Origin: Mobula hypostoma
Taxonomy: Eukaryota
DNA length: 60,000 bases
Assembly: GCF_963921235.1 (NCBI RefSeq)
Contig: NC_086108.1
Coordinates: 29,700,001-29,760,000 of the forward strand
Direction: 5' to 3'
A program made the position numbers and the translations under genes. Positions 7,516 through 58,839 of this stretch are shown one piece after another; positions within the stretch are counted from its first letter, which is position 1; each line of letters begins with the position of its first letter. The notes under the pieces were generated by a model that was not told where the DNA came from, did no database searches, and saw nothing but the letters and a program-made list of their open reading frames with translations.

Positions 7516-8828
7516 GATTCAAAATTGTTTAATGTTATTTCCTGCACGCAATCGTAAAGGGGAACAAGTAATTGTTACTACTGATCTGATGCAGCACAAA
7601 AATGCACAATAAGATAAAGAACACAATAATAATGAAAAAACACTGAATAAATACATAAGATAACGTATGTATTCTATATCCATAAAGTGACGCTAGGCAA
7701 TCAAGTGTCTGTGCAGTACATTAGGTAACTGCCAGGAACAGATAAAATAGTGGCGGATGGGAGTGAGTAAGGGTGAGTTCGTGGGTGGAGATGTTGATCA
7801 GCTTTATTGTTTGGGGAAAGTAGCTATTTTTGAGTCTGGTGATCCTGACGTGGTTGCTATATAACCTCCTCCCTGATGAGAGTGGGGCAAACAGTCCATG
7901 GGCATTGTGGATGGGATCCTTCAAGATGTTACTGGCCCTTTTCTTGCATCTCTATCTCTATCTCTATCTCTATCTCTATCTCTATCTCTATCTCTATCTC
8001 TATCTCTATCTCTATCTCTATCTCTATCTCTATCTCTATCTCTATCTCTATCTCTATCTCTATCTCTATCTCTATCTCTATCTCTATCTCTATCTCTATC
8101 TCTATCTCTATCTCTATCTCTATCTCTATCTCTATCTCTATCTCTATCTCTATCTCTATCTCTATCTCTATCTCTATCTCTATCTCTATCTCATATATTA
8201 TGTGAGTATAGATGTGCAGATCCCAGATCTCTTCAGCCTCCTCAAAGCAGAGGCTTTGGTGAGTTTTCCTGATTGTGTAGAATGTGTTGTGGGACCATGA
8301 GAGTTTGTGCAAGATGTGCGCTCCCAGGAGTTTGAAACTCTTTGCAGTGTCCACTACTGCACCGTTGTTAGTGATCAGCCCCACCGTTGTCATGCCATCC
8401 GCAAACTCAATCATGTGATTACGCCAGTATTTGGTCGTGCATTCGTGTATGAGCAGAGTGTACAGCAATGGGCTCGGCATACAGCCCTGGGAGGTACCCT
8501 TGCTGAGGATGATAGGGAGGGAGGAGCGGTTGTGCATCTTGATGGCAGAGGTCTGTTGGTTAGGAAGTCCAAAACAGTTGTATGATGGTGTATTTGGAAT
8601 GAGGAGTGGGAGTTTGTTCACCAAGGTCTGTGGGCTAATGGTGTTGAATGCTGAACTGAAATCCAGGAACGATATTCTGACATAAGTATCCTTGTTTTCT
8701 CGGTGTGTCAGGGCCAAGTGCATCACCAAAGCTATGGTATTGGCCATAGAGTGGTGATGTTGGTAAGCATATTGGTAAGTGTCCAATGTGGCAGGAATAG
8801 TGTTTCCCCATGTGCCATTACCAGCCAT
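7516..8828 (-). mobile_element. Rex1/Babar LINE fragment (RT plus 3' end) containing a hexamer microsatellite
   Basis: LDTYQYAY, YVRISFLDFSSAFNTI, GTSQGCMPSPLLYTL, FADGMTTVGLI and LSSGRRL..RLKNSYFPQTIKL. Confidence 0.85.
7951..8190 (+). repeat. (TCTATC)n microsatellite, about 40 perfect units
   Basis: Directly visible as 240 bp of uninterrupted repeat. Confidence 0.98.
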
Positions 8829-9859
8829 AGAAGGGGAGTGTGAAAGTGCTCCTGTTTTTGTCAATGGTACTAATGTTGTCAGCTTCAAGTTTGTGGAAGT
8901 GAACATCACTAGTAGCCTATCTGGTCTAACTACATAAATGCCACGGTCAAGAAAGCTTGCCAACACCTCTCCTTCCTCAGGAGGGTAAAGAAGTTTGGCA
9001 TATTCCCTGTTGATCCTCACCAATTTTTACTGATGCACTATAGAAAGCATCCAATCTGCATGCATCACAGTTTGGTATGGCAACTGCTCTAACTGTACCT
9101 GCAAACAGCCGCAGAGATTCGTGAGCATGAGCACACTTCAGTACATCATGGACACGAGCCTCCCCTCCATGGACTCGGTCTATACTTGTTGCCTCAGTAA
9201 AGCAAACAGCATAATCGAAGATCCCACCTGTTCTCTGCTTTCCCTCCTGTCGGGCAGAAGATACAGCTGTCTGAAACTATGTACCACCAGACTCGGGTGG
9301 CTTCTACCCACTTTTAAAAACTATTGTATGTTCCTCTAATACAATAAAATGGACACTTGACTGGTCAGTCTACCTTGTTATGATCTTGCATCTTATTTAG
9401 CTGCCGACACAATCTGTGCCATTTTTTTCTGCATTCTTTTATTTGTTTACCTTGTGGTATCTCAATGCACTACATGATAATTTGATCTTCATTTACAGTA
9501 TGCCAGGCAATCTTTTCACTATCTCGGTACAAGTGACAATACAATTGGAATTCTGCCTGCCTGTGTGCCTCCCAGAGTCTGGCTATAGCAGAAAATGGAG
9601 GAAAAGCCAACACAAATAAGACTGGAATATCCCACGAATTTGCAGCCTTTGGAATATCATGCTCTGGAGAATTCAGAGCCCTGTCCATTTCCCTGGGATT
9701 AATAAATAACAATGGGCATTGAGACTGATAAATTGGGGGAGGGGTGGTACGTTTGGGGGGGGGGTGGGGGGGTGAGGGGGGTGAATGGTAAGAAACCAGC
9801 AGAGGCATATTAGACTATCTGGTGCATTATCACTTGGTCCATTTCTGACACCACCTTCC

Positions 9860-11080
9860 CCTTTCCGATCTCCACCTCTGGAAACGAACTATCAACCGAC
9901 ATCTTTTACTTCCATGGTTGTCCTGACTATACTTCCCACCCTGTCCCCTGTAAAAATGCTATTCCCTTTTCTCACTTCCTTCATCTCTGCCGACTCTGTT
10001 CCCAGGATACAGCTTTCCTTTGCAGGAAATCAGATGCTCTCCTTCTCCATTCTTTGGCGTTTCCCTTACTCCAGCATTGGTGCTACCTTCACCCACATCT
10101 CCATTTCCCATACATCTACGCTTACCAAATCTTCCCACCGCCATAAACAGTGATATTTCTCTAGCCCGCATGAGCCTCTGCATCCAACACGTCATCTTCC
10201 ACAGCTTCCCCCATCTCCCAAGGGATCCTACCACAAACATATCTTTACCTCTCTCTGCTTTCCACAGGGGTCCCTCCCTCTGTGATTCTCTTGTCTATTC
10301 ATTCCTCCCTGTTAATCTCCCTCCCAGCAATAACCCTGAAAGCAGCCAAAGTGCTATACCTGCCCATGCAGGGCCGCAATTAGTCCCTTCAGGTGAGGTA
10401 ACACTTTACCAGCGAAATTTGTGATCCCAGCAGATATGTCCGGTGCTTCCAATGCATTGCTCAGATACGTCATAAATTGGGGGACTGCTTCATTGAACAC
10501 CTCTGCTCCATCTGCCAAAAGCAGGTGAGGGTGGCCCAATATTTTAATTCCAATTACCATTCCTGCTCCGACATGTCGGTCCATGGCCGCCTCTTGTGCC
10601 GCAATGAGGCCACCCCCGGTGGAGAAGCAATGCCTTGTTTTCTCTCTGGGTAGCCTCTAACCTAATGGTATGAATATCAATTTGTCTTTCTGGTTTAAAA
10701 ATAAATAATATCTCCCCTTTCCCTCTTCTTTTCCCCACTCTGGCCTCTTGCCTCTACTCACCTGCCTATCACTTCCCCACTGGGTGACTTCCTCCATTCC
10801 TTTCTCCTCCAGTCCACTCTCCTCCCCTGTATGATTCCTTCATCTCCAGCCCTTTATCTTTCCTGCCCACCTCCCTTCACTTATCACCTTCTAGCTATCC
10901 TCCTCCTCCCACCTTTTTATTTTGGTGTTTTATCCCTTCCTTTCCAGTCCTGAAGAAGGGTCTCTACCCAAAACATTGACTGTTTATTCATTTCCATAGA
11001 TGCTGCCTGACCTACTGAGTTTCTCCATTTTGTGTGCATTGCTTTGGATCTCCAGCATCTGCAGACTTTCTCCTGCTTGT
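9860..11080 (+). mobile_element. Penelope-like element 3' portion (degenerate RT C-terminus and GIY-YIG, terminal hammerhead motif)
   Basis: Homologous to the 408-1206 element. Ends cagtc-CTGAAGA-agggtctctaccc-AAAAC-ATT-gactg (10945-10982) and ccagcatctgcag. Confidence 0.85.
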
Positions 11081-34744: not shown

Positions 34745-35680
34745 GCAACATGCACAAAACTCTGTAGGAACTCAGCAGGCCAGGCAGCATCTATGGAAAA
34801 GAATACACATAACGTTTCGGGCTGAGACCTTCATTGGGACTGGAAGGGAAGATGAGTCTTCAGAGTAAAGAGGGGAGACGGGAGGAAGAAGTAAAAGGTG
34901 ATGGGTGAAACCAGGAGAGGGATGAAGTAACAAGCTGGGAAGTTGATGGATGAAAGAGATAAAGGACTGGAGAAGGGGGAATCAGATGGGAGAGGGCAGA
35001 AGGCCATGGAAGAGAGGGAAGGGGGGAGGAGCACCAGAGGAAGGTGATGCAGGTAATGAGGTGACGGGGGGAAATCAGAATGGGCCCCATGAAGGAAGGG
35101 GCCTAATTACTGGAAGTTAGAGAAGTCGATGTTCATGCCATCAGGTTGGAGACTACCCAGATGGAATATAAGGTTTTGCTCCTCCAACCTGAGTGTAGGC
35201 TCATCATGGCAGTAGAGGAGGCCATGGCAGAATGGGAATGGGAGGTGGAACTGAAATGAGTCTCCACCAGAAGACCCTGTTTTTTTTTTGTGGTGGATGG
35301 AGTGAAGGTGCTCGGCGATGTGGTCTCTCAATCTATGTCGGGTCTCACAGATTATACAGGAGGCCACACTGGGAGCATTGGGTACAGTAGATGACCCCAG
35401 CAGACTTGCAGGTGAAGTGCTGCCTTACCTGGAAGGACTGTTTGGGGCCCTGAATGCGGTGAGGGAAGAGATGTAGGCTCAGGTATGGTACTTGTCCCTC
35501 CCCACTGACCTCCCTCCTGGTACTTTGCAAGCGGAATGAGTATAACAAGGGAGTCGAGTAGGGAGAGATCCCCGTGGAAATTGGGACAGGGGGAGATAAC
35601 GATGTAATTAGTGGTGGGATGGTCGAAGTTACGGAGAATTATTTGCTGAGTGCGGAAGCTAGTGGGGTGGTAGGTTAAGA
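34745..35680 (-). mobile_element. Penelope-like element 3' portion
   Basis: QGPKQSFQVRQHFTCKSAGVIYCTQCSQCGLLY, ETRHRLRDHIAEHL and LEEQNLIFHLGSLQPDGMNIDF (GIY-YIG). Degenerate hammerhead at about 34808-34843. Confidence 0.9.
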
Positions 35681-38789: not shown

Positions 38790-39000
38790 ATAAACAAGAA
38801 GTCTGCAGATGGTGGAAATCCAATGTAACCCAAAAGCTGGAGGAGCTCAGCAGGTCAGGTAGCATCTAATGGAAATGAATAGATAGTTGACATTTTGAGC
38901 CAAGACCCTTCAGGACTAAGAATCTCAGCCCAAAATATTGATTATTTATTCACTTCTATAGATGCTGCCTGATCTGCCTCTCTCCAGCAATTGGTGTGTT
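38790..39000. mobile_element. PLE-derived fold-back (inverted) element, decayed
   Basis: Left arm ctggaggagctcagcaggtcaggtagcatcta..gaatagatagttgacattttgagc is mirrored by gcccaaaatattgattatttattc..tagatgctgcctgatctg..ctccagc. Confidence 0.7.
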
Positions 39001-40160: not shown

Positions 40161-42522
40161 TCTAGTAGTTGTCACACTCTGTTACCCTAAAGCTAGTTAG
40201 TTGATTGATACCCATCAGCCTAAAGATCTGAAGTTGGAATATTGAAGGCAGGTTAAATTTGAAGTTTCTCAAATCTGAGGAATCTGATGGGGAAATGAAA
40301 ACTTGTTTGAATGTTTTTAAGGTAGAGTTAGATGAGTTCTTGATGAGCAATGGGACATCAATTAATAGAACATAGAATAGTACAGCAAAGTACAGGCCCT
40401 TCGACCCACATTGTTGTGCCTCCCATATAACCCCCCACCTTAAATTCCTCCATATACCTGTCTAGTAGTCTCTTAAATTTCACTAGTGTATCTGTCTCCA
40501 CCACTGACTCAGGCAGCGTACTCCACGCACCAACCACTCTCTGAGTAAAAAAACCTTCCTCTAATATCCCCCTTGAAGTTCCCATCCCCTACCTTAAAGC
40601 CATGTCCTCTTGTATTGAGCAGTGGTGCCCTGGGGAAGAGGCACTGGCTCTCCACTCTATCTATTATCTATTCTTAATATCTTGTATACCTCTATCATGT
40701 CTCCTCTCATCCTCCTTCTCTCCAAAGAGTAAAGCCCTAGCTCCCTTAATCTCTGATCATAATGCATACTCTCTAAACCAGGCAGCATCCTGGTAAATCT
40801 CCTCTGTACCCTTCCAATGTTTCCACATCCTTCCTATAGTGAGGCGACCAGAACTGGACACAGTACTCCAAGTGTGGCCTAACCAGAGTTTTATAGAGCT
40901 GCATCATTACATCGTGACTCTTAAACTTTATCCCTCGACTTATGAAAGCTAACACCCCATAAGCTTTCTTAACTACCTTATCTACCTGTGAGGCAACTTT
41001 CAGTGATCAGTGGATATGTACCCCCAGATCCCTCTGCTCCTCTACACTACCAAGTATCCTACCATTTGCTTTGTACTCTGCCTTGGAGTTTGTCCTTCCA
41101 AAGTGTACCACCTCACAGTTCTCTGGGTTGAACTCCATCTGCCACTTCTCAGCCCACTTCTGCATCCTATCAATGTCTCTCTGCAATCTTCGACAATCCT
41201 CTACACTATCTAAAACACCACCAACCTTTGTGTCGTCTGCAATCTTGCCAACCCACCCTTCTACCTCCACATCCAGGTTGTTAATAAAAATCATGAAGAG
41301 TAGAGATCCCAGAACAGATTCTTGTGGGACACCACTAGTCACAACCCTCCAATCTGAATGTACTCCCTCCACCATGACCCTCTACCTCTGCAGGCAAGCC
41401 AATTCTGAATCCACCTGGCCAAACTTCCCTGGATCCCATGCCTTCTGACTTTCTGAATAAGCCTACCATGTGGAACCTTGTCAAATGCCTTACTAAAAAC
41501 CATGTAGATCACATCCACTGCACTACCCTCATCTATATGCCTGGTCACATCCTCAAAGAACTCTATCAGGCTTCTTAGACATGATCTGCCCTTCACAAAG
41601 CCATGTTGACTTGACTGTCCCTGATCAGATCATGATTCTCTAAATGCCCATAGAGCCTATCTCTAAGGATCTTTTCCAACAGCTTTCCCACCACAGATGT
41701 AAGGCTCACTGGTCTATAATTACCTGGACTATCCCTACTACCTTTTTTGAACAAGGGGACAACATTCGCCTCCCTCCAATCCTCCGGTACCATTCCCATG
41801 GACAACGAGGACATGAAGATCCTAGCCAGAGGCTCAGCAATCTCTTCCCTCACCTCATGGAGCAGGCTGAGGAATATTCCATCAGGCCCTGGGGACTTAT
41901 CCGTCCTAATGTATTTTAATAACTCCAACACCTCCTCTCCCTTTAATATCAACATGCTCTAGAATATCAACCTCACTCATATTGACCTCACCATCATCAA
42001 GTTCCCTCTCATTGGTGAATACCGAAGAGAAGTATTCATTGAGGACCTCGCTCACTTCCACAGCCTCCAGGCACATCTTCCCACCTTTATCTCTAATCCG
42101 TCCTACCTTCACTCCTGTCATCCTCTTTTTCTTCAGATAATTGAAGAATGCCTTGGGGTTTTCCTTTACTCTACTCACCAAGGCCTTCTCATGCCCTCTT
42201 CTTGCTCTTCTCAGCCCCTTCTTAAGCTCCTTTCTTGCTTCCCTATATTCCCCAATAGACCCACCTGATCCTTGCTTCCTAAACCTCATGTATGCTGCCT
42301 TCTTCCACCTGACTAGATTTTCCACCTCACTTGTCACCCATAGTTCCTTCACCCTACCATTCTTTATCTTCCTCACCAGGACAAATTTATCCCTAACATC
42401 CTGCAAGAGATATCTAAACATCGACCACATGTCCATAGTATATTTCCCTGCAAAAACATCATCCCAATTCACACCAGCAAGTTCCAGCCTTCAGCAGGTC
42501 AGGAAACATCCGTGGAAAAGAT

Positions 42523-42560
42523 CGGTCGACGTTTCGGGCCAGAACCCTTCGTCAGGACTG
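42523..42560 (-). ncRNA. Minimal type-I hammerhead ribozyme, intact core
   Basis: cagtc-CUGACGA-a-gggu(ucug)gccc-GAAAC-GUC-gaccg: both conserved boxes, stem II, stem I (guc/gac) and a palindromic ACGU stem III. Predicted cleavage between 42528 and 42527. Confidence 0.75.
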
Positions 42561-42774
42561 TAGAGGGAAGGGGCAGAGGCCCTATAAAGAAGGTGGGGGG
42601 AGGATGGGAGGGAGAAGGCTGGTAGGTTCCAGGTGAAAAACTAGTAAGGAGAAAGATAAATGGATGGGAGAGGGGAGGCACTTCCCCTTACTGGTTTTTC
42701 ACCTGGAACCTACCAGCCTTCTCCCTCCCATCCTCCCCCCACCTTCTTTATAGGGCCTCTACCCCTTCCCTCTA

Positions 42775-42812
42775 TAGTCTTGACGAAGGGTTCCGGCCGG
42801 AAACGTCGACCG
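42775..42812 (+). ncRNA. Hammerhead ribozyme motif, variant copy
   Basis: tagtc-TTGACGA-agggttccggccg-GAAAC-GTC-gaccg, with a C3>U change and loss of the stem II closing pair. Confidence 0.55.
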
Positions 42813-44547
42813 ATCTTTTCCATGGATGCTGCCCGACCTGCTGAATTCCTCTAGCATGTTGAGTGTTGCTTTGACCCCAGCATCTGCAGATTATTTTGTG
42901 TTTAAGTTCTAGCCTTATAGCATCATAATTTGCCCTTCCCCAATTAAAAATTTTCTTGTCCTCTCTGATTCTATCCTTTTCCATGATAATGCTGAAGGCC
43001 AGGGAGTGGTGGTCACTGTCCCCCAGATGCTCACCCACTGAGAAATCTGTGACCTGACCCGGTTCATTACCTAATACTAGATCTAGTATGGCACTCCCCC
43101 CTAGTCGGCCTGTCAACAAACTATGACAGGAATCCGTCCTGGACACACTTAACAAACTCTGCCCCATCTAAACCCTTGGAACTAATCAGGTGCCAATCGA
43201 TATTAGGGAAGTTAAAGTCACTCATGATAACAACCCTGTTATTTTTGCACTTTTCCAAAATCTGCCTCCCAATCTGCTCCTCGGTATCTCTGCTGCTACC
43301 AGGGGGCCTATAGAATACTCCCAATAGAGTAACTGCTCCCTTCCTGTTCCTGACTTCCACCCATACTGACTCAAAAGAGGATCCTGCTACATTACCCACC
43401 CTTTCTGTAGCTGTAATAGTATCCCTGACCAGTAATGCCACCCTTCCTCCCCTCCCCCACCCCCATTCCTTTTAAAGCACTGAAATCCAGGAATATTGAG
43501 AATCCATTCCTGCCCTGGTGCCAGCCAAGTCTCTGTAATGGCCACTACATCATAATTCCATGTATGTATCCAAGCTCTCAGTTCATCACCTTTGTTCCTG
43601 ATGCTTCTTGCATTGAAGTACATGCATTTCAGCCCTTCTACCTTACTACCTTTACACCCTTTATTCTGCTTCTCTTTCCTCAAAGCCTCTCTGTATGTTA
43701 GATCTGGCTTTATTCCATGCACTTCTTTCACTGCTCTATCACTCTGGGCCCCATCCCCCTTGCAAATTAGTTTAAACCCTCCCGAACCATGCTAGCAAAC
43801 CTACCTGCAAGGATATTGCTCCCCCTCGAGTTCATGTGCGACCCATCCAATCTGTACAGGTCCCACCTTCCCCAGAAGAGATCCCAATGATCCAAAAGTC
43901 TAAAACCCTGCCCCCTGCACCAACTCCTCAGCCACACATTCAACTGCCATCTCCTCCAATTCTTACCATCACTGTCACGTGGCACTGGCAGCAATCCTGA
44001 GAACGCCACCCTTGAGGTCCTGCACTTCAGCCTGCTGCCTCGTTCCTGAAACTCACACTTCAGGACCTCATCCCTCTTCCTGCCTATGTCGTTGGTACCA
44101 ACATGTATCACGACTTCTGGTTGCTTTCCCTCTCGTACTAGGATGGCGTGCATCCAGTCAGAGACATCCCAGATCCTGGCACCCGGGAGGCAACAAACCC
44201 TATGGGTGTCCTTCTCACGTCCACAAAATCTCCTGTCTGCGCCCCTGACTATAGAGTCTCCAATGACGACAGCTCTCCTCTTCTCCCTCCCACCCTTCTG
44301 CACCAGAGGGTCAGACTCAGTGCCAGAGGCCCTGCCACCATGGCTCACACCTGGTCGATCATCCCCGCCAACAGTATCCAGGACGGTAAATTTATTATTC
44401 AGGGGAATGGCTACAGGGGTACTGCAGATAAATGTGAATATGGAATTAATGTTGTGTTTGGATTAGGCGTGATATTAAATGCTGGAGCAGGCTTGAGTGG
44501 TCAGCTCCTTGCATGTATCAGATCCTTTTCTAACAGAACCTTGATAC

Positions 44548-45574: not shown

Positions 45575-46445
45575 CCACCCAACATACACAATGTGCTGGA
45601 GGTGCTCAGCAGGTTGGGCAGCATCTGTGGAAGTGAGTAAACAGATTTTGGGCCAAGACCCGTCATCAGGACTGGAAAGGATGAGGGAAGAAGCCAGAAT
45701 AAGAAGGTGGTGGAGGGCAAGCCCAAGGTGATTGGTGAAGCCAGGTGGTGGGATGAACCTTGAAGGTGATGGGTGGCAAAGGTAATGGGCTGGAGAAGGA
45801 GGAATTTTATAGGAGTGGAAAGTGGAGCATGGGAGAAAGGGATGGAGGTGATAGGCAGGAGGGAAGAGGTCAAGGGGGGGGCAGAGTGAGGATGTGAATG
45901 GAGGGGTGAGGGAATAAATTACTGGAAGCTGGAGAGATCGATCTTCATGCCATCGGGTTAACCAGACAGAAAATGAGGTGTTGCTCCTCCAATCTCAGAG
46001 CTGCGTCATCATGGCAATGGAGGAGGCCATGAACTGTCATGTTGGAATGGGGATAGGAATTAAAATCATTGGCCACATGAAATCCTGCTTGTCAGAGGTG
46101 GAGCGAAGGTAATCGACAAAGTGTTACCCCAATCTGTGTCAGGTCTCAGCAATGTAGAGGAGACTGCTTTGGGAGCACTGGAAACAGTTGATAACCCCAA
46201 CAGATTCGCAGGTGACATGTTGCCTCATTTGGAAAGACTCGGGGTCATGAATACAGGTGGGAGAGTAGTGAATGGGCAGCTGTATCAGTTCTCTTGCTTG
46301 CAGGGTTAAGTGCCAGGAGGGAGCCTAGTGGGGAGGGGCAAATGGACAAGGGAATCATGGAGGGAATGAAGCCTGCAGAGAGTGGGGGAGTGGGAACTCA
46401 ATGTCTGTTTGGTAGTAAGGTCCCACTGAGCATGACTCCTGCACT
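45575..46445 (-). mobile_element. Penelope-like element 3' portion
   Basis: Colinear with 408-1206 and 34745-35680. Decayed hammerhead at about 45642-45675. Confidence 0.85.
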
Positions 46446-47240: not shown

Positions 47241-47376
47241 TTAATTTGATGTAAGACTGGAGTGCTAGGGTTTAATTTAAAACACAAATGTGATTGCAAC
47301 ATAACACATCCAAAATCTGATGTGTATTTCTGTAATATGAGAGTCATCTCTGTAATCAAAACTTCCTCAGTACTAT

Positions 47377-47563
47377 AACAAACAAGAGAAAATTTGCAGA
47401 TGCTGGAAATCCAAGCAACACAAAATGCTGGAGGAACTTAGCAGGCCAGGCAGCATCTACAGGAAAAAAAGTACAGTCGATGTTTTGGGCCTGAAACATT
47501 GACTACTTTTTTTCTATAGATGCTGCCTGGCCCGCTGAGTTCCTCCAGTATTTTGTGTGTGTT
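47377..47563. mobile_element. PLE-derived 187-bp fold-back mini-element with 16-bp TSD
   Basis: Arms acacaaaatgctggaggaac..gtcgatgttttgggc and ctgaaacattgac..gttcctccagtattttgtgt. TSD acttcctcagtactat (47361-47376) and acttcctcactattat (47564-47579). Confidence 0.85.
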
Positions 47564-47727
47564 ACTTCCTCACTATTATCATTATGTTATCTTCACTTTC
47601 CTGTCACTTTCTGAATATCACCTATCCTGAAATATTTATTTCGCACCTCTGGTCATCTTGCAGACATATTTCTAATGGTGTCAAACTTCATTTACCTCTC
47701 TTTGCACCACAGATGGAAAAGAAATCT

Positions 47728-50216
47728 TTTTTTTTAATAATAATTTTTATTGAGTTTTCAAAAAGAATACATGAAAGATAAAATCTACCCTCCCCTTCCC
47801 CTTAACCCTCCCCCCCCCATATATAGTCCTACCTAAAATGAAGAAGAGAAAAAAAAAGAGCCGCCTGGGTATTGGAAGGTTTCCACATGCTCCATGGGAT
47901 TCAAAATAAATGTGGTATAATTATTCGTTACTTTCCCCAAGGGACCAAGATCTTTTTTGGAGCACTTAAATATGCCATCCTATCTTTTGTAAATAAGGGC
48001 GCCAAATATTCAAAAATGTTACATATTTATCTCTTAAATTATAAGTAATTTTTTCGAGTGGAATAGAACTAGCCATTTCATTATTCCAACGATCCATACT
48101 TAAATACGAATCAGATTTCCAAGTAACTGCTATAGTCTTCTTAGCTACTGCCAATGCAATTTTTATAAATTCTTTTTGATATTTATTCAATTAAATTTCG
48201 GTTTTATCCCTTCAATATCACCTAATAGAAATAATACAGGGTTATGTGGAAGTTGAATTCCAGTAATTTGTTCCAATAAGATTCTTAAATTTATCCAAAA
48301 GGGTTGAATTTTAAAACAAGACCAAGTAGAATGTAAAAAAAGTACCAATTTCTTGATTACACCAAAAGCATTTATCGGATAGATTTAAATTTAATCTATT
48401 TATTTTTTGTGGTGTAATATATAATTGGTGTAAAAAATTATATTGTACTAATCTAAGTTGAACATTTATTGTATTTGTCATACTGTCAAGACAAAATCTT
48501 GACCAATTTGTTTCATCAATATTAATATTCAGATCTGTTTCCCATTTTTGCTTTGACTTATGGATTCCTTGTTTAATTGTCTGTTCTTGAATCAAATTAT
48601 ACATACAAGAAATAAATTTTTTAATTTTCCCTTTTTGAATTAAAATTTCAATTTCATTAGGTTTTGGCAAAAACATTGTTTGACCCAGCTTACCTTTTAA
48701 GTAAGCCCTTAATTGAAGGTAACAAAAGAAAGTATTATTTGATATTTTATATTTATCCTTTAATTGTTCAAATGACATCAATATACCTCGTTCATAACAA
48801 TCTCCTATAAATTTAATCCCTTTTTGGTACCAATTATATAAAAGTTGATTGTCCATTGTAAAAGGAATAAGTCTGTTTTGGAACAAAGGTCTCCTTGCTA
48901 ATAGAGATTTCTGTGTTTCATTATCAACATTTATCTTATTCCATAGATCAATCAAATGTGTTAATATAGGAGATTCTTTCTTTTCCCGTATCCATTTAGA
49001 TTCCCATTTATATATAAAATCTTCAGGTCTATTTTCTCCTATCTTGTCTAATTCTATTTTAATCCATGCTGGTTTTCAATCATCGAAGAAAGATGCAATA
49101 AATCTAAGTTGATTTGCTTTATAATAATTTTTAAAGTTTGGAAGTTGTAACCCTCCTAACCCAAATTTACATGTCAATTTTTCCAATGATATTCTTGACA
49201 TTTTACCTTTCCAAAGAAATTTTCTCACACATTTATTTAACTCTTGAAAAAATTTCTGTGGCAGTTGTATTGGTAATGTTTGAAACAAATACTGTAATCT
49301 AGGAAATATATTCATTTTTACAACATTGACTCTACTTACTAATGTTATTGGTAATATCATCCATTTGTCAAAATCTTCTTGAATTTTTTTCAATAGTGGT
49401 AAATAATTAAATTTATATAAATTCTTTACATCATTATCACGTCTTATACCTAAATACTTTATACCATTTACCGGCCATCTAAATTGGGTTACTAATCGAC
49501 ATTGACTATAGTCTCCTTCAGTAAGAGGTAAAATTTCACTTTTATCCCAGTTTATTTTGTAACCTGATACCTTCCCATATTCATCCAATCTAGAAGATAA
49601 TTTATGTAACGAATGTTGTTGGTTTGTTAAGTAGATCAAAACATCATCGGCAAAAAGATTAATTTTATATTCCTCCTGATTAACTCTAAAACCCATAATA
49701 TCTGGATCAATTCTGATTAGTTCTGCTAATAGCTCTATCGCCAGTACAAATAAAGCAGGTGATAATGGACAACCTTGTCTAGTTGACCTTTTTAACTGGA
49801 ATGGTGTTGAAATTTGAGAATTTGTCACTACTTTAGCCTTCGGGTTAGAATTTAAAGTTTTAATCCAATTTATAAAAGATGTTCCTAACCCATATTTTTC
49901 TAATACTTTAAATAAAAAATCCCATTCTAATCTATCAAATGCTTTTTCTGCATCCAAGGCTACTACTATACTCTTCTCGTCCCTTTTTTGTGCCAAATGA
50001 ATTATACTGAGTAGCCGGGTTACATTATCTGCCAATTGTCTATTTTTAATAAATCCTGTTTGATCCATATGTATTAATTTTAGTAAATATTTAGATAATC
50101 TATTCGATAAAATTTTTGCTATTATTTTGTAATCCATATTCAATAGAGAAATAGACCTGTATGATGTTGGTTTCATAGGGTCTCTGTCTGTCTTTTTTTG
50201 GCAATACTATTACAAT
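47728..50216 (-). mobile_element. 5'-truncated L1-clade LINE (ORF2 RT to C-terminus, polyA tail), perfect 16-bp TSD
   Basis: YRSISLLN..DQTGFIKNR..LDAEKAFDRLEW..TRQGCPLSP..LFADD..YLGI, a C-terminal CxxC knuckle, and poly-T at 47728. TSD gatggaaaagaaatct at 47712-47727 and 50217-50232. Confidence 0.95.
49076..50176 (-). pseudogene. L1 ORF2 reverse transcriptase domain (open for 366 aa)
   Basis: Non-LTR RT motifs are present without stops. Frameshifted continuation at 48955-47966. Confidence 0.9.
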
Positions 50217-50274: not shown

Positions 50275-50565
50275 CATGCACAACATTGGAGGAGCTCAGC
50301 AAATCAGGCAGCATCTATGGAGGGGAATAAACAGTTGATGTTTCAGGCCAAGACCGTTCATCGTGACTGGAAAAGGTGGCAGAAGTTGGAATAAGAAGTC
50401 CGGGGAGGGGATGGAGTACAAGCTATCGGGCAAGTCCAGGTGCGGGAAGGAGTGATGAAGTTGGGAGGGGATGGGCGGAAGAGGTAAAAGGCTGAAGAAG
50501 GAATCTAATACGAAAGGATAGTTGGCCATAGAAGAAAGGGCAGGAGGAGGGGAAACAGAAGGAAG
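50275..50565 (-). mobile_element. PLE terminal fragment
   Basis: ggaggagctcagc..gcagcatctatgg..cagttgatgtttcaggccaagaccgttcatcgtgactgg. Confidence 0.8.
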
Positions 50566-51074: not shown

Positions 51075-52558
51075 ATTTGATTTGGGATTTTTTTGATACT
51101 GATTAACAGAAAAAGACAATTTCATGTCAAAGTAAAAACAGATCTTTACAAAGTGATCTAAATTAATTACAAATATAAAACACAAAATAATTGATTGAAT
51201 GATTACTCACCACGTTCAAGTTAGTATTTAGTAGAAGCACTTTTGGCAGCAATTACACCCTTAAGTCTGTGTGGATAGGTGTCTATCAGCTTTGCACATC
51301 AGGACACTGCAATTTTTCCCTATTCTTTTTACAAAACTTCTCAAGCTCTGTCAGATTGCATGGGGATCATGAGTGATTGAGATCTGGACTCTGACTTGGC
51401 CACTCCAGGATATTAACTTTGTTTTTAAGCCATTCCTGTGTAGCTTTGGCTTTATGTTTTGGGTCATCGTCTTTCTGGGAAACAAATCTTCACCCAAGTC
51501 GCAGTTCTCTTGCAGATTGCATCAAGTTTTCTTCCAGTATTTCCCTGTATTTTGCTGCATTCATTTTACCCTCTACCTTCACAAGCCTTCCAAAGGCCTG
51601 TTGCAGAGAAGCAACCCCACAGCATGATGCCGCCACCAGCATGCTTCACAATAAGGATGGTGTGTTTTTGATGTTTAGTCTCTCGGCCGAAAAGCTCAAT
51701 TTTGGTTTTGTCAAACCATGAGCCGCCTTCCAGCCGACTTCAGAGTCTCCCACATGCTTTCTGGCAAGCTCTAGCTGAGATTACATGTGAGTTTATTTTT
51801 CCAACAGTGGCTTTCTCTTTGCCACTCTCCCATAAAGCTATGACTGGTGAAGCACCCGGGCAACAGTTGCTGTGTGTGCAGTCTCTCCCATCTTAGCCAC
51901 TGAAGCTTGCAACTCCTCCAGCATTATCACAGGTCTCTTGGTGGCCTCCCTCACTAGTCCCCTTCTTGCACGGTCACTCAGTTTTTGAGGACGGCCTGCT
52001 CGAGGCAGATTTACAGCTGTGCCATATTCTTTCCATTTCTTGATGAGTGACTTAACTGTACTCCAAGGGATATTTAATGATTTGGAAATTTTCTTGTATC
52101 CATCTCCTGACTTGTGCTTTCCAATATCCTTTTCAGAGTTGCTTAGAGTATTCTTTTGTCTTCATAGTGCAGTTTTTGCCAGAATACTGGCTCAGCAGCA
52201 GTTGGACATTTCAGATACAGGCATATTATTACCACAACTAATTGGGCCACTTCGACTGCACACAGGTCTCCAAAGACGGATCTCCATTTGATTAATTATG
52301 TGACTTGTAAAGCCAGATGGCTGTACCAGTGATGACTTGCTGTGTCATATTACGGGTGAATACCTATGTAATCAATTTCTTTGTGTTTTTTATTTGTAAT
52401 TAATTTGGATCACTTCATAGAGATCTGTTTTCACTTTGACATGAAAGTCTTTTTCTATTGATCAGTGTCAGAAAAGCCAAATTAAATCCACTATGATTCA
52501 AAGTTGTAAAATAATAAAACAGAACTTCTAAGGGGGAGAATACTTTTTACAGGCACTG
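51075..52558 (-). mobile_element. Tc1/mariner transposon, decayed, with long (about 200 bp) inverted repeats; outer left end missing
   Basis: Right end tacttttacaggcactg+TA. 51075-51212 is the inverse of about 52355-52490. The transposase from 52165 (-) reads MKTKEYSKQL..HKSGDGYKKISKSLNIPWSTVKSLIKKWKEYG..LPRAGRP. Confidence 0.9.
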
Positions 52559-54194: not shown

Positions 54195-56270
54195 AATGCA
54201 CAAAATACTCCAAGAACTCAATAGGTCAGGCAACATCTATGAAATGAATAAACAGTCTGTTTTGGGCTGAAGCCCTTCTCCAGGACTGGAAAGGAACGGG
54301 GAAGACGCCAGCATAAAAAGAAAAGGTGAAGGAGGACGAGCTAGAAGGTGATAGGTGAAGCCAGATTAGTGATAAAGGTAATGGGCTGGAGAAGGAACCT
54401 GATGGTCATTGAGGCATCCTGTTCTATCACCCAGAAACACACAGATCCACAGTGAGGAAGTGTTTCAAAAGGTTGGTGATGAAATCTATCAACTCCTGCC
54501 TGAGAATTGACTTAGATCTGCTCCAATTTGCCTACCGGTACAACAGATCCACAACTGATGCCAGCTCATTGGCTCTTCATTCAACCCTGGAACACCTGGA
54601 CAGCAAAAATGCGTACATCAGAATGCTCTCTATCAATTACAGCTCAATGCCATCATCCCCCCAAAACTATTCAATTGGCTTCAATATCTTGACCCCAATA
54701 CCTCCTTGTGCAATTGGATCCTGAATTTCATCACTTGCAGACCCCAGTCAGTTCAGATTGGCAACAACATCTCCATGGTCCCCATCAGTGCACCGTAAGA
54801 CTGTGTTTAGTCCCCTGTTCTACTTGCTTTATACTTGTGACTGCGTGGTTAAGCACAGCTTCAGTGCCATATTCAGGTTTGCTGATGACACCACAGTCAT
54901 AGGCCCAATGAAAGATGATGAATCAGCTTACAGGACAGAGATTGAAAATCTGGCAGAGTGGTGTCATAACAGCATCATCTGACACCAATGTCAGCAAGAC
55001 CAAGGAGATGATTATAGACTTCAAGAAAAGGAAATCACAAATCCATGAGCCAGTCCTCAGAGAAGGATCAGAGGTGGAGAGGGTTCGCAACTTTAAATTC
55101 CTAAAGTGCTATTATTTCAGAGGACTAGTCCTTGTGTGCAATTACAAAGAAACCACAGCAGCACCTCTACTTCCTTAGGAGTTTGTAGAAATTTAGTATG
55201 ATCTGTAAAACTTTAACGAGCTTCTGTAGAGAGTATGTTGAGTGGCGGCATCACAGCCTAGCTTGGAATGAAACACTCCAGCGGGAAAGTGGCATCCATC
55301 ATCAGGTACACCCCCCCCCCCGCCCACCACCACCACCAGACGGAGGGCTCTTTCTCACTGCTGCCATCAGTAAGAAGAGCTTTGGGACTCCCAACACCAG
55401 GTTCAGGTACAGTTACTACCCCTCAACCATCAGGCTCTTGAACCAAATGGGATAATTTCAATCAACTTCACTTGCCCCTTCTTCGAAGTGTTCCCACACC
55501 AAACGGACTCACTTTCAAGGACTCTTCATCTCAGGTTCTTGATATTTATTGCTTATTTATAGCTTTTGTTGCATTTGCACAGTTTGTCTTCTGCATGCTG
55601 AACACCCTAGACGGACGGTCTTTCATTGAATCTGATATAGTTATTCTATAGATTTATTGAGTATGTATGCTCACGAAAAAATGAATCTCTGGTTGTATAT
55701 GGTGACATGCATTTACTTCTGATAAAATTTACTTTGAGGAGAGTGGACCATGGGAGAGAGGGAAGGAGAAGGAGCATCAGGGGAAAGAGAGAAGGGGCCA
55801 GAGTGGGGAATACAAGAAGGGGGAGGGGAAAAATTACTGGAAAGAGAATTTGATGTTCATGCCATCGGGTTGGCGGTGACCTAGACAGAATGAGGTATTG
55901 CTTCTCCACCCTGAGAGTGGCCTCATTGTGGCAAAGGAGGAGACCATGGACCAACAGGTCAGAATGAGAATGGAGATGGGAATTAAAATAATTGGCCACT
56001 GGGGAAATTGCACTTTGGGTGGATGGAGCAGAGGTGCTTGACAACCAGTCCCCTAATTTACACTGGGTCACAAAATGTAGAGAAGGCCACATTGGGATTA
56101 CAGGATGTAATAGACAACCCGAACAGATTCGTAGGTAAAGTGTTGATTCAACTGGAAGGTCTGGTTGGGGCTCTGAATAGAGGTAAGGGAGGAGGTGAAT
56201 GGGCAGGTGTAGCATTTGTCACTTGTGGGGGGCATGTGAGTCTTGTAGGAGGGATGAATAGACAAGTGAA
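54195..56270 (-). mobile_element. Penelope-like element split by a Rex1 insertion (pieces 54195-54405 and 55738-56270)
   Basis: ggagaaggaacctgat at the left resumes as ggagagtggaccatggg at 55738. GIY-YIG remnant SPVANYFNSHLHSHSDLLVHGLLLCHNEATLRVEKQYLI. Confidence 0.8.
54440..55737 (+). mobile_element. 5'-truncated Rex1/Babar LINE
   Basis: [56 protein letters not shown] and RYSYYPSTIRLLN, plus the 3' UTR. Confidence 0.9.
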
Positions 56271-58839
56271 TCAGATGGTGCTGATGCTGTTTGTTATAAC
56301 ATTTCTTCCACTTTTCAACATCAGTTTTTGTTTTCCTTACCCTCCCCCAATTACACATTCATCTGTTTTAACTGACCTTGTGAAGCACTCGTGCATCAGT
56401 TGAACCATTTATGGTCAGTTTAATTCTCTGTAAAAGAACACTAAAATGACCCTCATCTGCATTTTGTTGGCTTCTGCCTATTAACCGTATTCTTAATCAC
56501 ACAATTTCATTTGGAATTGGAGAAGGAAGAGTTGACAGGACATGGAGCAATCTTGATATTTGCAAACAAGCATATGATCAATAATGCAGGAATGTTGTCA
56601 TTTGTAAGATGAGTTTACATCAGAAACAACCAGTACTTCAAATCTTAAACTCTCAATTGGCTTCCATTTTAGGTTTGAATAATCATTAATGTGGTTTGCA
56701 GATGTTCATTTGAGTTACCAGAAGCTTTTGAATGCTGCCGTTTTGAACAAATTGTCATAGGAATGTTGGGCAGATGAGCAGATTGAACAAGCTGCCAGAT
56801 TTTTTTTTCCATTCTGGCATATTGTTTTGGAATAGAGGGTCGGCTGATTTTCTGAAGATTCAGATCAGAGCTAATAATGAAAAATGTCACTTTCTCAAAC
56901 TTTGTGATTGGGTTGCTGTTTCAAATATACAAAAAACAATTCTGGTCTTGCATTTTTCTATTTCAGTTTGAAATTCTGAGCTGCTGGCTACTTACACAAG
57001 TTCAGCTAATTGCTAATCTATAGTCCGGGCCACATTTGAAGGAATTACTGAATGCTGGGCTGTTGTGGCTTCATTTTATTCAATCATGATGAGATCATGG
57101 TTAAAAATCGGGATATTAATTGGAAAGTTAGTTCTTTACAGCAGCATGTATGGTCATCAGTCCGCTGGATCTGACCTTGGCAGATTTCCCAGGTTCACTG
57201 AGTTATTCAATACCTGAACTCAGAAATGCTGTAGCTAGTTGTAAATTTAATGAGAGTTTTGTGGATTTTTTTTTACTACTTGCCAATATTGAAACTACTC
57301 TTTCATTGTTTATTCAAAGCAAATGTGTAGAATGCAACCGGCATGGACCTTTGACTTAAAATATGCAAATCTGTATGTCAGAACTACTGCCCACAATATA
57401 CATTATATGCATGTGAATTGCTATAATATTGTGCTTCGTACTCTTCCTGAACTGATAGACTGAATTTTGCAATGAGCTTTCTGGGCCTGTGTGGGGAGCC
57501 AGAGAGTGCTGGGCTCCAAGGTTTTTAGAGAAACTGAATTGGTTAATTATTTAATAAGAGTTGTTAATCGTTAGAGTTCTTTGTGTTTTTCTTGAGTGAC
57601 TCGCTCTTTGTAATATGGTCTCCGGGTGGTTTCTCTTTAAATTTAAGTTTATTTTGATAGGCTCAGGAATTCTGTGTCCTATTACCTAAGCAGACACCCG
57701 ATTAGAGCTAATCAGTGTCTTAGTTTTGAAAATGTTAAATTTCGTGGTATCACTCAGCCGAGCCACCAATGATCTGTCAGAATTCTGATGAATAAACTTT
57801 GGTCACCATCTCTACATGGGAGTCTATCTTTTCTCCACATTTGGATTCCAACATTGCCAGTGCACATCATGACAAGTTTTGTCTCCAGGCAAGACTGATT
57901 CTAATGGTTTTCCATTTGATGCTGAACACATGCTATAGGTATCTGCTGCTCAGCTGACATCATCTTCTGGTCTTCAGAATTTTGTGTTTGAGTAGTTGAT
58001 CCATTTCTTAGTAGTCCTATTGGATTCTTAAGTAAATGGAGCCACTTACAAAATGAAGAATCCGAATACAAATCCATGTAATTTTCAAATACAAAATTGT
58101 TGCTCTTTAATTGTATCCAGAAGCATATAGTGAAAATTTGTTTTAGTTTTGCTGGGAAAGGCTAGCATAGAAGCCTGAAAAGACTATGTAAATTTTGGCA
58201 GCTGGTACTTCTAAATGTAATACGAGCCAGGAACTGTTTTTTATGAGCCATCTGAAGTTTGTTTGGTCTTACAATGCAAACATTTACTTCAGGATTTCCT
58301 TTGACATGAGGGAGTGTTATTAAGTTATTGTAATAAACAGGAGATGCAGATGGGGAAAAAATTCACAGTAATATGTGAAGTATATCTATCCAAGATGGTC
58401 TGTGTTTGTTTTCCCTCTTGGTGCTTCATTGATAGTGGTAGTCCTAACGGTTAACTGTTCAGAAAGTATTGATCAAAAGTGTGCTTTTTTTTAAAAAGGA
58501 GCAGGATCTCCAAATCCTATTTGTGAAGCAAAATGGCTTGTAATCCACCATGTGTAGAACAATTGAAAGTTATTTTTGGTTCCGAGTTGTGAAGGAATGA
58601 AGATGACACTTTCTAATATGCATATCCGGCAGTTAACATTTCTCGAGTTGCAGCTCCCACAGTGCGGTTACATTAAGAGAAACAATGTAATTTGAACAGG
58701 AATATTGAAGTAAAAGATTATATATTCCCTCAGATCTGGAGTTTATTCCTGATCCTTGATTAACTTCCAATAGCTTCATGCTTGGGTATTGAGGAGCCAG
58801 AGCAGATCAATGTGAAGATCAAGATGAAGGTTCAGTTGC

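Follow-up and report, generated by a model that had tools for sequence, protein, structure and literature searches.

Here, we describe a 412-bp non-coding insert at 42492-42903 of a 60,000-nt window of the Mobula hypostoma genome (NCBI RefSeq assembly GCF_963921235.1, contig NC_086108.1, positions 29,700,001 to 29,760,000 of the forward strand; "the window" is this whole stretch, and positions are counted from its first letter). The insert very probably goes back to one insertion event of a Penelope-like element (PLE) and has been decaying since; it consists of two 5'-truncated PLE 3' ends joined head-to-head, unequal at both ends and each carrying a copy of a hammerhead ribozyme motif, inside one target-site duplication in a dead long interspersed nuclear element (LINE). 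Taken as a whole, it is on balance best explained by a PLE insertion in which, we infer, both cut target strands primed reverse transcription (dual priming) and the two complementary DNAs (cDNAs) were joined end to end, with the ribozymes carried along as inactive passengers. Dual priming is itself the most likely mechanism, with an even chance of being the correct one.

Insert boundaries and host element

The insert lies between two copies of a 13-bp target-site duplication (42479-42491 and 42904-42916) that differ at one site (12/13 identical). Contigs from four of 24 listed public runs (X2, X5, X10 and X15) were aligned to the window, and in 4/4 runs the contigs that stem from uninterrupted LINE copies jump over exactly 425 bp (412 + 13), with up to 13 letters placeable on either side of the break. 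The reading frame of the host LINE is in phase to the left and right of the insert once 425 bp are removed. Together, the skip and the continuing frame independently confirm the boundaries, and a first-pass annotation made from the sequence alone, which had proposed a 412-bp insertion with a 13-bp duplication interrupting a CR1-type LINE, is borne out, the duplication being imperfect. The best share of words for the exact locus in the public runs was 0.64, and none of the contig pieces examined from these runs crosses the outer insert junctions.

The host LINE occupies 41010-44462 on the minus strand in several broken frames and is dead. Pfam matches place a GDSL-esterase ORF1 (PF13472, 43770-44462), an AP endonuclease (PF03372, 43390-43791) and a reverse transcriptase (RT; PF00078, 41596-41958 and 41010-41381) along it, with the insert in the linker between endonuclease and RT; the two LINE frames that flank the insert had no match in the Pfam scan. 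We take this LINE to be CR1-like from its domain layout.

Arm anatomy

The inverted arms (42492-42653 and 42682-42843) are 162 nt each and differ by 11 mismatches, 9 of them transitions. A repeat search reports the pair as 164 nt at 93%, of which 2 nt belong to the duplication, and it is the longest of 20 inverted pairs (at least 25 nt, within 1500 nt) in the window. The earlier proposal of two Penelope 3' ends joined head-to-head, with arms of about 160 bp, is thus confirmed. The plus-strand arm (42682-42903) is long and tailed: it is 5'-truncated, reaches the main 3' end of its family, where contigs exit at 42904, and carries a one-sided 3' extension of 60 nt (42844-42903). The last ~30 bases of this extension correspond to the usual PLE tail, which spans the distance between the two family 3' ends; these were located by contig loose ends at 42861 and 42904 and by alignment. 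The minus-strand arm (42492-42680, including the centre) is a short, untailed, inverted and 5'-truncated PLE end that stops 60 nt before the 3' end of the plus arm.

Between the arms lies a 28-nt centre (42654-42681), which reads as a 5' extension of the minus arm. Its pyrimidine content on the minus strand (82%) resembles that of the element's sense strand (79%). In an ungapped comparison with four older copies of the family, the centre taken as minus-arm extension gave 54/112 matches (shuffles 36.8, p 0.003), and taken as plus-arm extension 20/112 matches to the same copies (p 0.32); this test leaves out 2 of 6 older copies, those with extra inserted sequence. A version based on MAFFT columns (p 0.002) is biased by the alignment and is not relied on. 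One contig of organism B (run X5, record 27) follows the window sequence ungapped over 42537-42680 and departs there. Because of these ungapped matches and this contig the centre is assigned to the minus arm; base 42681 can be assigned to neither arm, and the central junction falls at 42680/42682. The junction region first given as 42650-42686 is corrected accordingly: at the 5' end the minus arm outreaches the plus arm by ~27 nt, and at the 3' end the plus arm outreaches the minus arm by 60 nt. Since each arm holds sequence that is absent from the other, neither is a plain copy of its partner. Separately, the left copy of the duplication (42479-42491) contains AGTTCC, the six family letters that follow the end of the short arm (42844-42856 region), a single case that chance could produce.

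Origin and age of the PLE family

The plus arm matches nine other places in the window at 66-80%. Older related copies are of PLE ancestry: by tblastn, decayed PLE open reading frame (ORF) ends are present at five places (810-1195, 9832-10687, 35110-35678, 45969-46434 and 55843-56283), four of which lie ~250-400 nt upstream of a hammerhead-like end. One of these window fragments shares 57% identity with the protein P0001 over 84 aa. P0001 has a cysteine cluster and a GIY-YIG-like domain besides the end of an RT domain; its GIY-YIG match scores 20.9 bits, under the Pfam cut-off of 22.6, and two window PLE ORF fragments scanned against Pfam had no match. Among 72 longer relatives of P0001 most carry RT and some GIY-YIG, the cysteine cluster between RT and endonuclease is visible in P0001 and P0002, and the closest protein match of the older related elements comes from a ray. 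The insert thus appears to derive from the end of an element encoding RT and GIY-YIG, by way of homologous older copies that carry the ORF end; the young subfamily at the insert is tied to these copies by DNA homology only. The Penelope origin proposed for the arms is supported by the same copies.

Two 3' ends are found in this family. At the first, 226 contigs (X2) and 182 contigs (X5) exit at 42904 into unlike AT-rich sequence; at the second, ~30 nt earlier, 201 (X2) and 191 (X5) exit at 42861, continuing for ~13 nt. The ~30-nt stretch between them is the PLE tail. The minus arm stops 25-30 nt short of the family's usual short 3' end. The arm family is very abundant, with 27,152 contigs aligned in X2, LINE flanks included.

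Both arms share letters at 42604/42731 and 42610/42725 from which 92-100% of the family depth differs in 4/4 runs; contigs were placed on the best-fitting arm, which biases such shares of family letters. Private changes occur on the plus arm (42775, 42780, 42799 and 42823) and on the minus arm (42541, 42642 and 42650). The arms have decayed apart by 6.8%, which fits arms that were identical at insertion and then decayed by ~3.4% each. One insertion event, as the first-pass annotation had it, is supported because a single duplication encloses both arms, because they share rare letters and because private changes are split over the two.

Hammerhead motifs

The minus arm holds a minimal type-I hammerhead with an intact core (42560-42523, minus strand), identified by sequence and numbering, with the predicted cut between 42528 and 42527. 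The core is complete (C3-U4-G5-A6-N7-G8-A9, G12-A13-A14, U16.1-H17), and the extra base after position 9, the G10.1-C11.1 pair and a palindromic ACGU stem III are present, so the motif is of the type first reported for this arm. Hammerheads had been claimed on both strands; the copy on the plus arm (42775-42812) is damaged at two conserved positions, with C3 changed to U at 42780, so that U3 faces G8 with no compensating A8, and C11.1 changed to G at 42799, which breaks G10.1-C11.1. C is the family letter at both 42780 and 42799: most of the depth reads so in X2, X5 and X15, but not in X10, where depth is thin. The plus copy is probably inactive, since its lesions hit conserved positions and by comparison with the C3G and G8C mutants of a published PLE hammerhead (PMC11167929). 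Separately, stem I carries a variant with an A-C mismatch on both arms, at 42524 and 42811, and the pairing letter makes up ~37% of X2 and X5 family depth and most of that of X10.

A transcript from either strand contains one sense hammerhead, with its antisense copy transcribed earlier. The energy cost of imposing stems I and II is 56.5 (minus) and 60.9 (plus) kcal/mol in the full hairpin, and still 10.5 (minus) and 13.1 (plus) kcal/mol within a single arm, which supports the earlier suggestion that a long hairpin masks the ribozyme. When two copies of the hammerhead are co-folded as a dimer, the GUCGAC palindrome pairs over the cut site instead, in an energy model that ignores the catalytic core. 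Hammerhead cleavage at this locus is unlikely on these folding models, because the single sense hammerhead would be buried with its antisense copy in a ~160-bp hairpin. The Rfam search that the first-pass annotation had proposed gave no hammerhead covariance-model match: the window yields 0 matches at gathering score, and no hammerhead is among 50 matches down to E 10 over 42300-43100; matches to microRNA models were all below gathering scores, and reflect the long hairpin. Hammerhead patterns were found at 0 loci in metagenome, viral and prokaryote collections. The public-run contigs speak neither for nor against editing or expression: A>G and T>C places number 6 and 10 in X15, which is RNA only by guess, against 6 and 12 in the DNA run X2, similar counts.

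Other head-to-head inserts

Two further head-to-head PLE inserts occur in the window. The second insert (47377-47563) stands within a 16-bp duplication (14/16 identical; 47361-47579 with the duplication), has a one-sided tail and no loop, and its arms meet at GGCC (47488-47491), inside hammerhead stem II. The third (38790-39000, ends approximate) is more decayed; its tailed arm is the longer at the 5' end, by ~10 nt, and a duplication was looked for and not found. The three inserts therefore show three geometries, with the 5' extension on the untailed arm, no loop, and the extension on the tailed arm, as expected from independent truncation of two cDNAs. Because three inserts show three junctions and three geometries, head-to-head inserts are probably a recurring integration by-product rather than one mobile hairpin. 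The junction at 42681 has no second copy within the 60 kb. In 4/4 runs the summed contig depth drops 12- to 25-fold from the next arm bin to the centre bin, weak evidence as depth is no copy number, and 42681 is crossed by none of the 32 pieces examined out of 75,320, which is likewise weak.

Mechanism and alternatives

Under dual priming, a protein with RT and GIY-YIG domains would have cut both strands of the LINE DNA 13 bp apart. Reverse transcription from the bottom-strand end would have begun at the tailed 3' end of the family, giving the plus arm, and from the top-strand end further inside the PLE RNA, giving the minus arm, with PLE RNA of one source as template for both cDNAs. Both would have stopped early, ~27 nt apart, and been joined end to end, and gap filling would have produced the 13-bp duplication. 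The hammerheads would be passengers of the element's terminal repeat, and a transcript in either direction would fold into a 160-bp hairpin from which no cleavage is expected. Steps of this kind are documented in vitro: a purified PLE (Poseidon) protein, predicted to be dimeric, nicks and extends both target strands and initiates at a pair of internal positions which delimit the tail; hammerhead cleavage is not required for its insertion (PMC11167929). Extension of both strands is demonstrated there, and the sole use of "inverted" in that text refers to a blocked oligo. No literature on twin priming in PLE integration was found by title.

Several observations weigh against dual priming or against the anatomy on which it leans. 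A single template molecule would account for the two shared rare letters no less well than two would. The minus arm ends 25-30 nt before the usual short end, so that dual priming needs an extra start site, and none was seen among 24 loose ends examined of 1491. The central junction has no clear microhomology, and the sample, at three junctions, is very small. The centre test is of modest strength: p rises to 0.031 once all 6 older copies are included, a weak or misaligned pairwise version gave 46/1000 and 495/1000, and c10.9 scored 28/1000 in the plus orientation. Contig support for the centre is the single record from organism B, at 85% identity, and no ORF was found attached to the young subfamily of the insert itself. 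Lastly, self-priming is the published proposal for head-to-head PLE junctions (PMC3846280).

Self-priming, or fold-back, is plausible and on the unlikely side: a cDNA or an antisense PLE RNA would fold back and be copied into a hairpin, with one end trimmed at integration or bases later lost from one side of the centre. Long palindromes often lose bases on one side of their centre. The two letters common to both arms fit the single template molecule that this account supposes, the insert at 38790-39000 has fold-back geometry, and one published account attributes the tail to endonuclease resolution of an intermediate (PMC8557442). The arms of the 412-bp insert are the difficulty. A copied arm cannot hold sequence that the loop-bearing template arm lacks, and here it would have to, the loop-bearing arm being the one without the 3' extension, so simple fold-back fails and a second step is needed; the loop-free insert at 47377-47563 is impossible by fold-back unless a deletion followed. 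The first-pass annotation had taken the overlap in content between the arms to point to fold-back or self-priming, but each arm has private sequence, and dual priming on separate PLE ends also gives overlap.

Two separate events, that is a tailed insertion whose 5' edge then received an inverted PLE end, or an inverted duplication that arose locally afterwards, are highly improbable. PLEs tend to insert beside earlier copies (PMC6765202) and the arms differ at 11 sites, but both lie inside one duplication and share rare letters, their changes are divided as expected for equal age, and a local inverted duplication could not provide the extra 27 nt of the minus arm. Least credible of all, and given next to no weight here, is a mobile non-autonomous family in which the 412-bp hairpin is copied as a unit and its ribozyme controlled by the antisense arm: the unit in its entirety sits in a clean duplication, PLE ends are enough to be mobilised in trans (PMC3846280) and the arm family is very abundant, but the arms have decayed by 6.8%, centre depth is low, no examined piece crosses the junction, and that junction is single in 60 kb while the other two inserts have different ones, so that the distinct fold-back retroelement first proposed is not upheld.

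Dual priming may extend beyond this locus. With somewhat less than an even chance, head-to-head PLE inserts could arise in general without a hairpin intermediate, a dimeric protein priming both cut strands and the truncated cDNAs being joined, sometimes through a short self-complementary site such as GGCC (47488-47491). Pairing between RNA and target may set unusual start sites, which the AGTTCC in the duplication at this locus might reflect if it is not a chance match.

Comparison with known systems

The layout of the insert is already published for PLEs, and it is ordinary in kind. An inverted 5'-truncated copy with a one-sided tail of 30-40 bp is typical of PLEs (PMC8557442), and inverted pLTRs with 8-10 bp duplications have been described, head-to-head being the most frequent inverted form (PMC3846280). 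With the complex insertions of EN+ PLEs (PMC3846280, PMC8557442, PMC8969392) the insert shares inverted ends, a one-sided extension, one duplication and a retroelement target. It differs in that both of its copies are cut back into the untranslated end with no ORF left, in an extension of 60 nt versus 30-40, and in a duplication of 13 bp versus 8-10 bp in the rotifer cases.

All the features listed for the minimal hammerheads that PLEs carry in metazoans (Cervera and De la Pena, 2014; PMC4209133) are present in the minus copy: it lacks loop 3 and has the palindromic 15.2-16.2, the extra base after 9 and G10.1-C11.1. The same source describes minimal hammerheads that occur in pairs, on opposite strands and 100-700 bp from each other, and reports no cleavage by monomers and low cleavage by dimers of PLE minimal hammerheads. 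Schistosoma hammerhead families (PMC4209133) have longer stems than the insert, with its stem I of 3 bp and a mismatch and its stem II of 4 bp; the plus copy here is damaged as well. PAc, the Poseidon of Anolis, shares two family 3' ends ~30 nt apart and AT-rich flanks, and its nicking and extension of both strands would yield the layout of the insert (PMC11167929). The PAc hammerhead overlaps the ORF start (PMC11167929), whereas here hammerheads are seen only downstream of ORF ends, in older copies. The cysteine cluster between RT and endonuclease in P0001, also seen in P0002, is like the zinc-finger-like motif described for Neptune/Nematis rather than Poseidon (PMC8557442). Non-LTR retrozymes (bioRxiv 10.64898/2026.07.22.740005) are likewise non-coding and PLE-derived with a type-I hammerhead, but form head-to-tail tandems with two sense hammerheads per transcript, whereas the insert is head-to-head with one. 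Identity with a non-LTR retrozyme was rejected on this layout and on the one intact hammerhead, where a tandem with two intact is required. No literature on Penelope ribozymes in elasmobranchs was found; subscription papers and supplements may describe the family.

In LINE-1 twin priming both target strands prime and an inverted product results inside one duplication, both primers use one RNA, and the parts hardly overlap. The insert shares with it priming from two strands, as read here, and the single duplication; its arms overlap by 162 nt, unlike those of LINE-1.

Other features of the window

Two PLE ends at 160-620, both in minus orientation and ~230 nt apart, are possibly a partial tandem. 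An AT-rich LINE ORF2 at 48311-50206 (minus strand), which we take to be L1/Tx1-like, has two long frames with one stop between them and an RT match at E 1e-39, and lies directly downstream of a PLE end at 50281-50405. The inverted repeat formed by 51089-51211 and 52355-52475 (~100-120 nt at 83-86%, with 1.1-1.3 kb between the copies) may mark the two ends of a DNA transposon. At ~7940-8100, a long six-base tandem repeat that reads Ile-Glu repeatedly on the minus strand stands at the end of a LINE fragment.

Significance

How PLEs make tandem and inverted insertions is given as unresolved in a published account (PMC8557442). The value of this insert lies in the asymmetry of its arms, which turns that open question of mechanism into one that can be counted in a full assembly: a simple tally of the arm on which the longer 5' end lies tells self-priming from dual priming. 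If head-to-head inserts do arise in general by dual priming, the many junctions of this very abundant family would amount to a record, on the scale of the genome, that decides between dual priming and the published self-priming model. Inverted Penelope copies fed small-RNA silencing in transgenic Drosophila (PMC3681739), and hairpins such as the one described here, if transcribed, could do the same.

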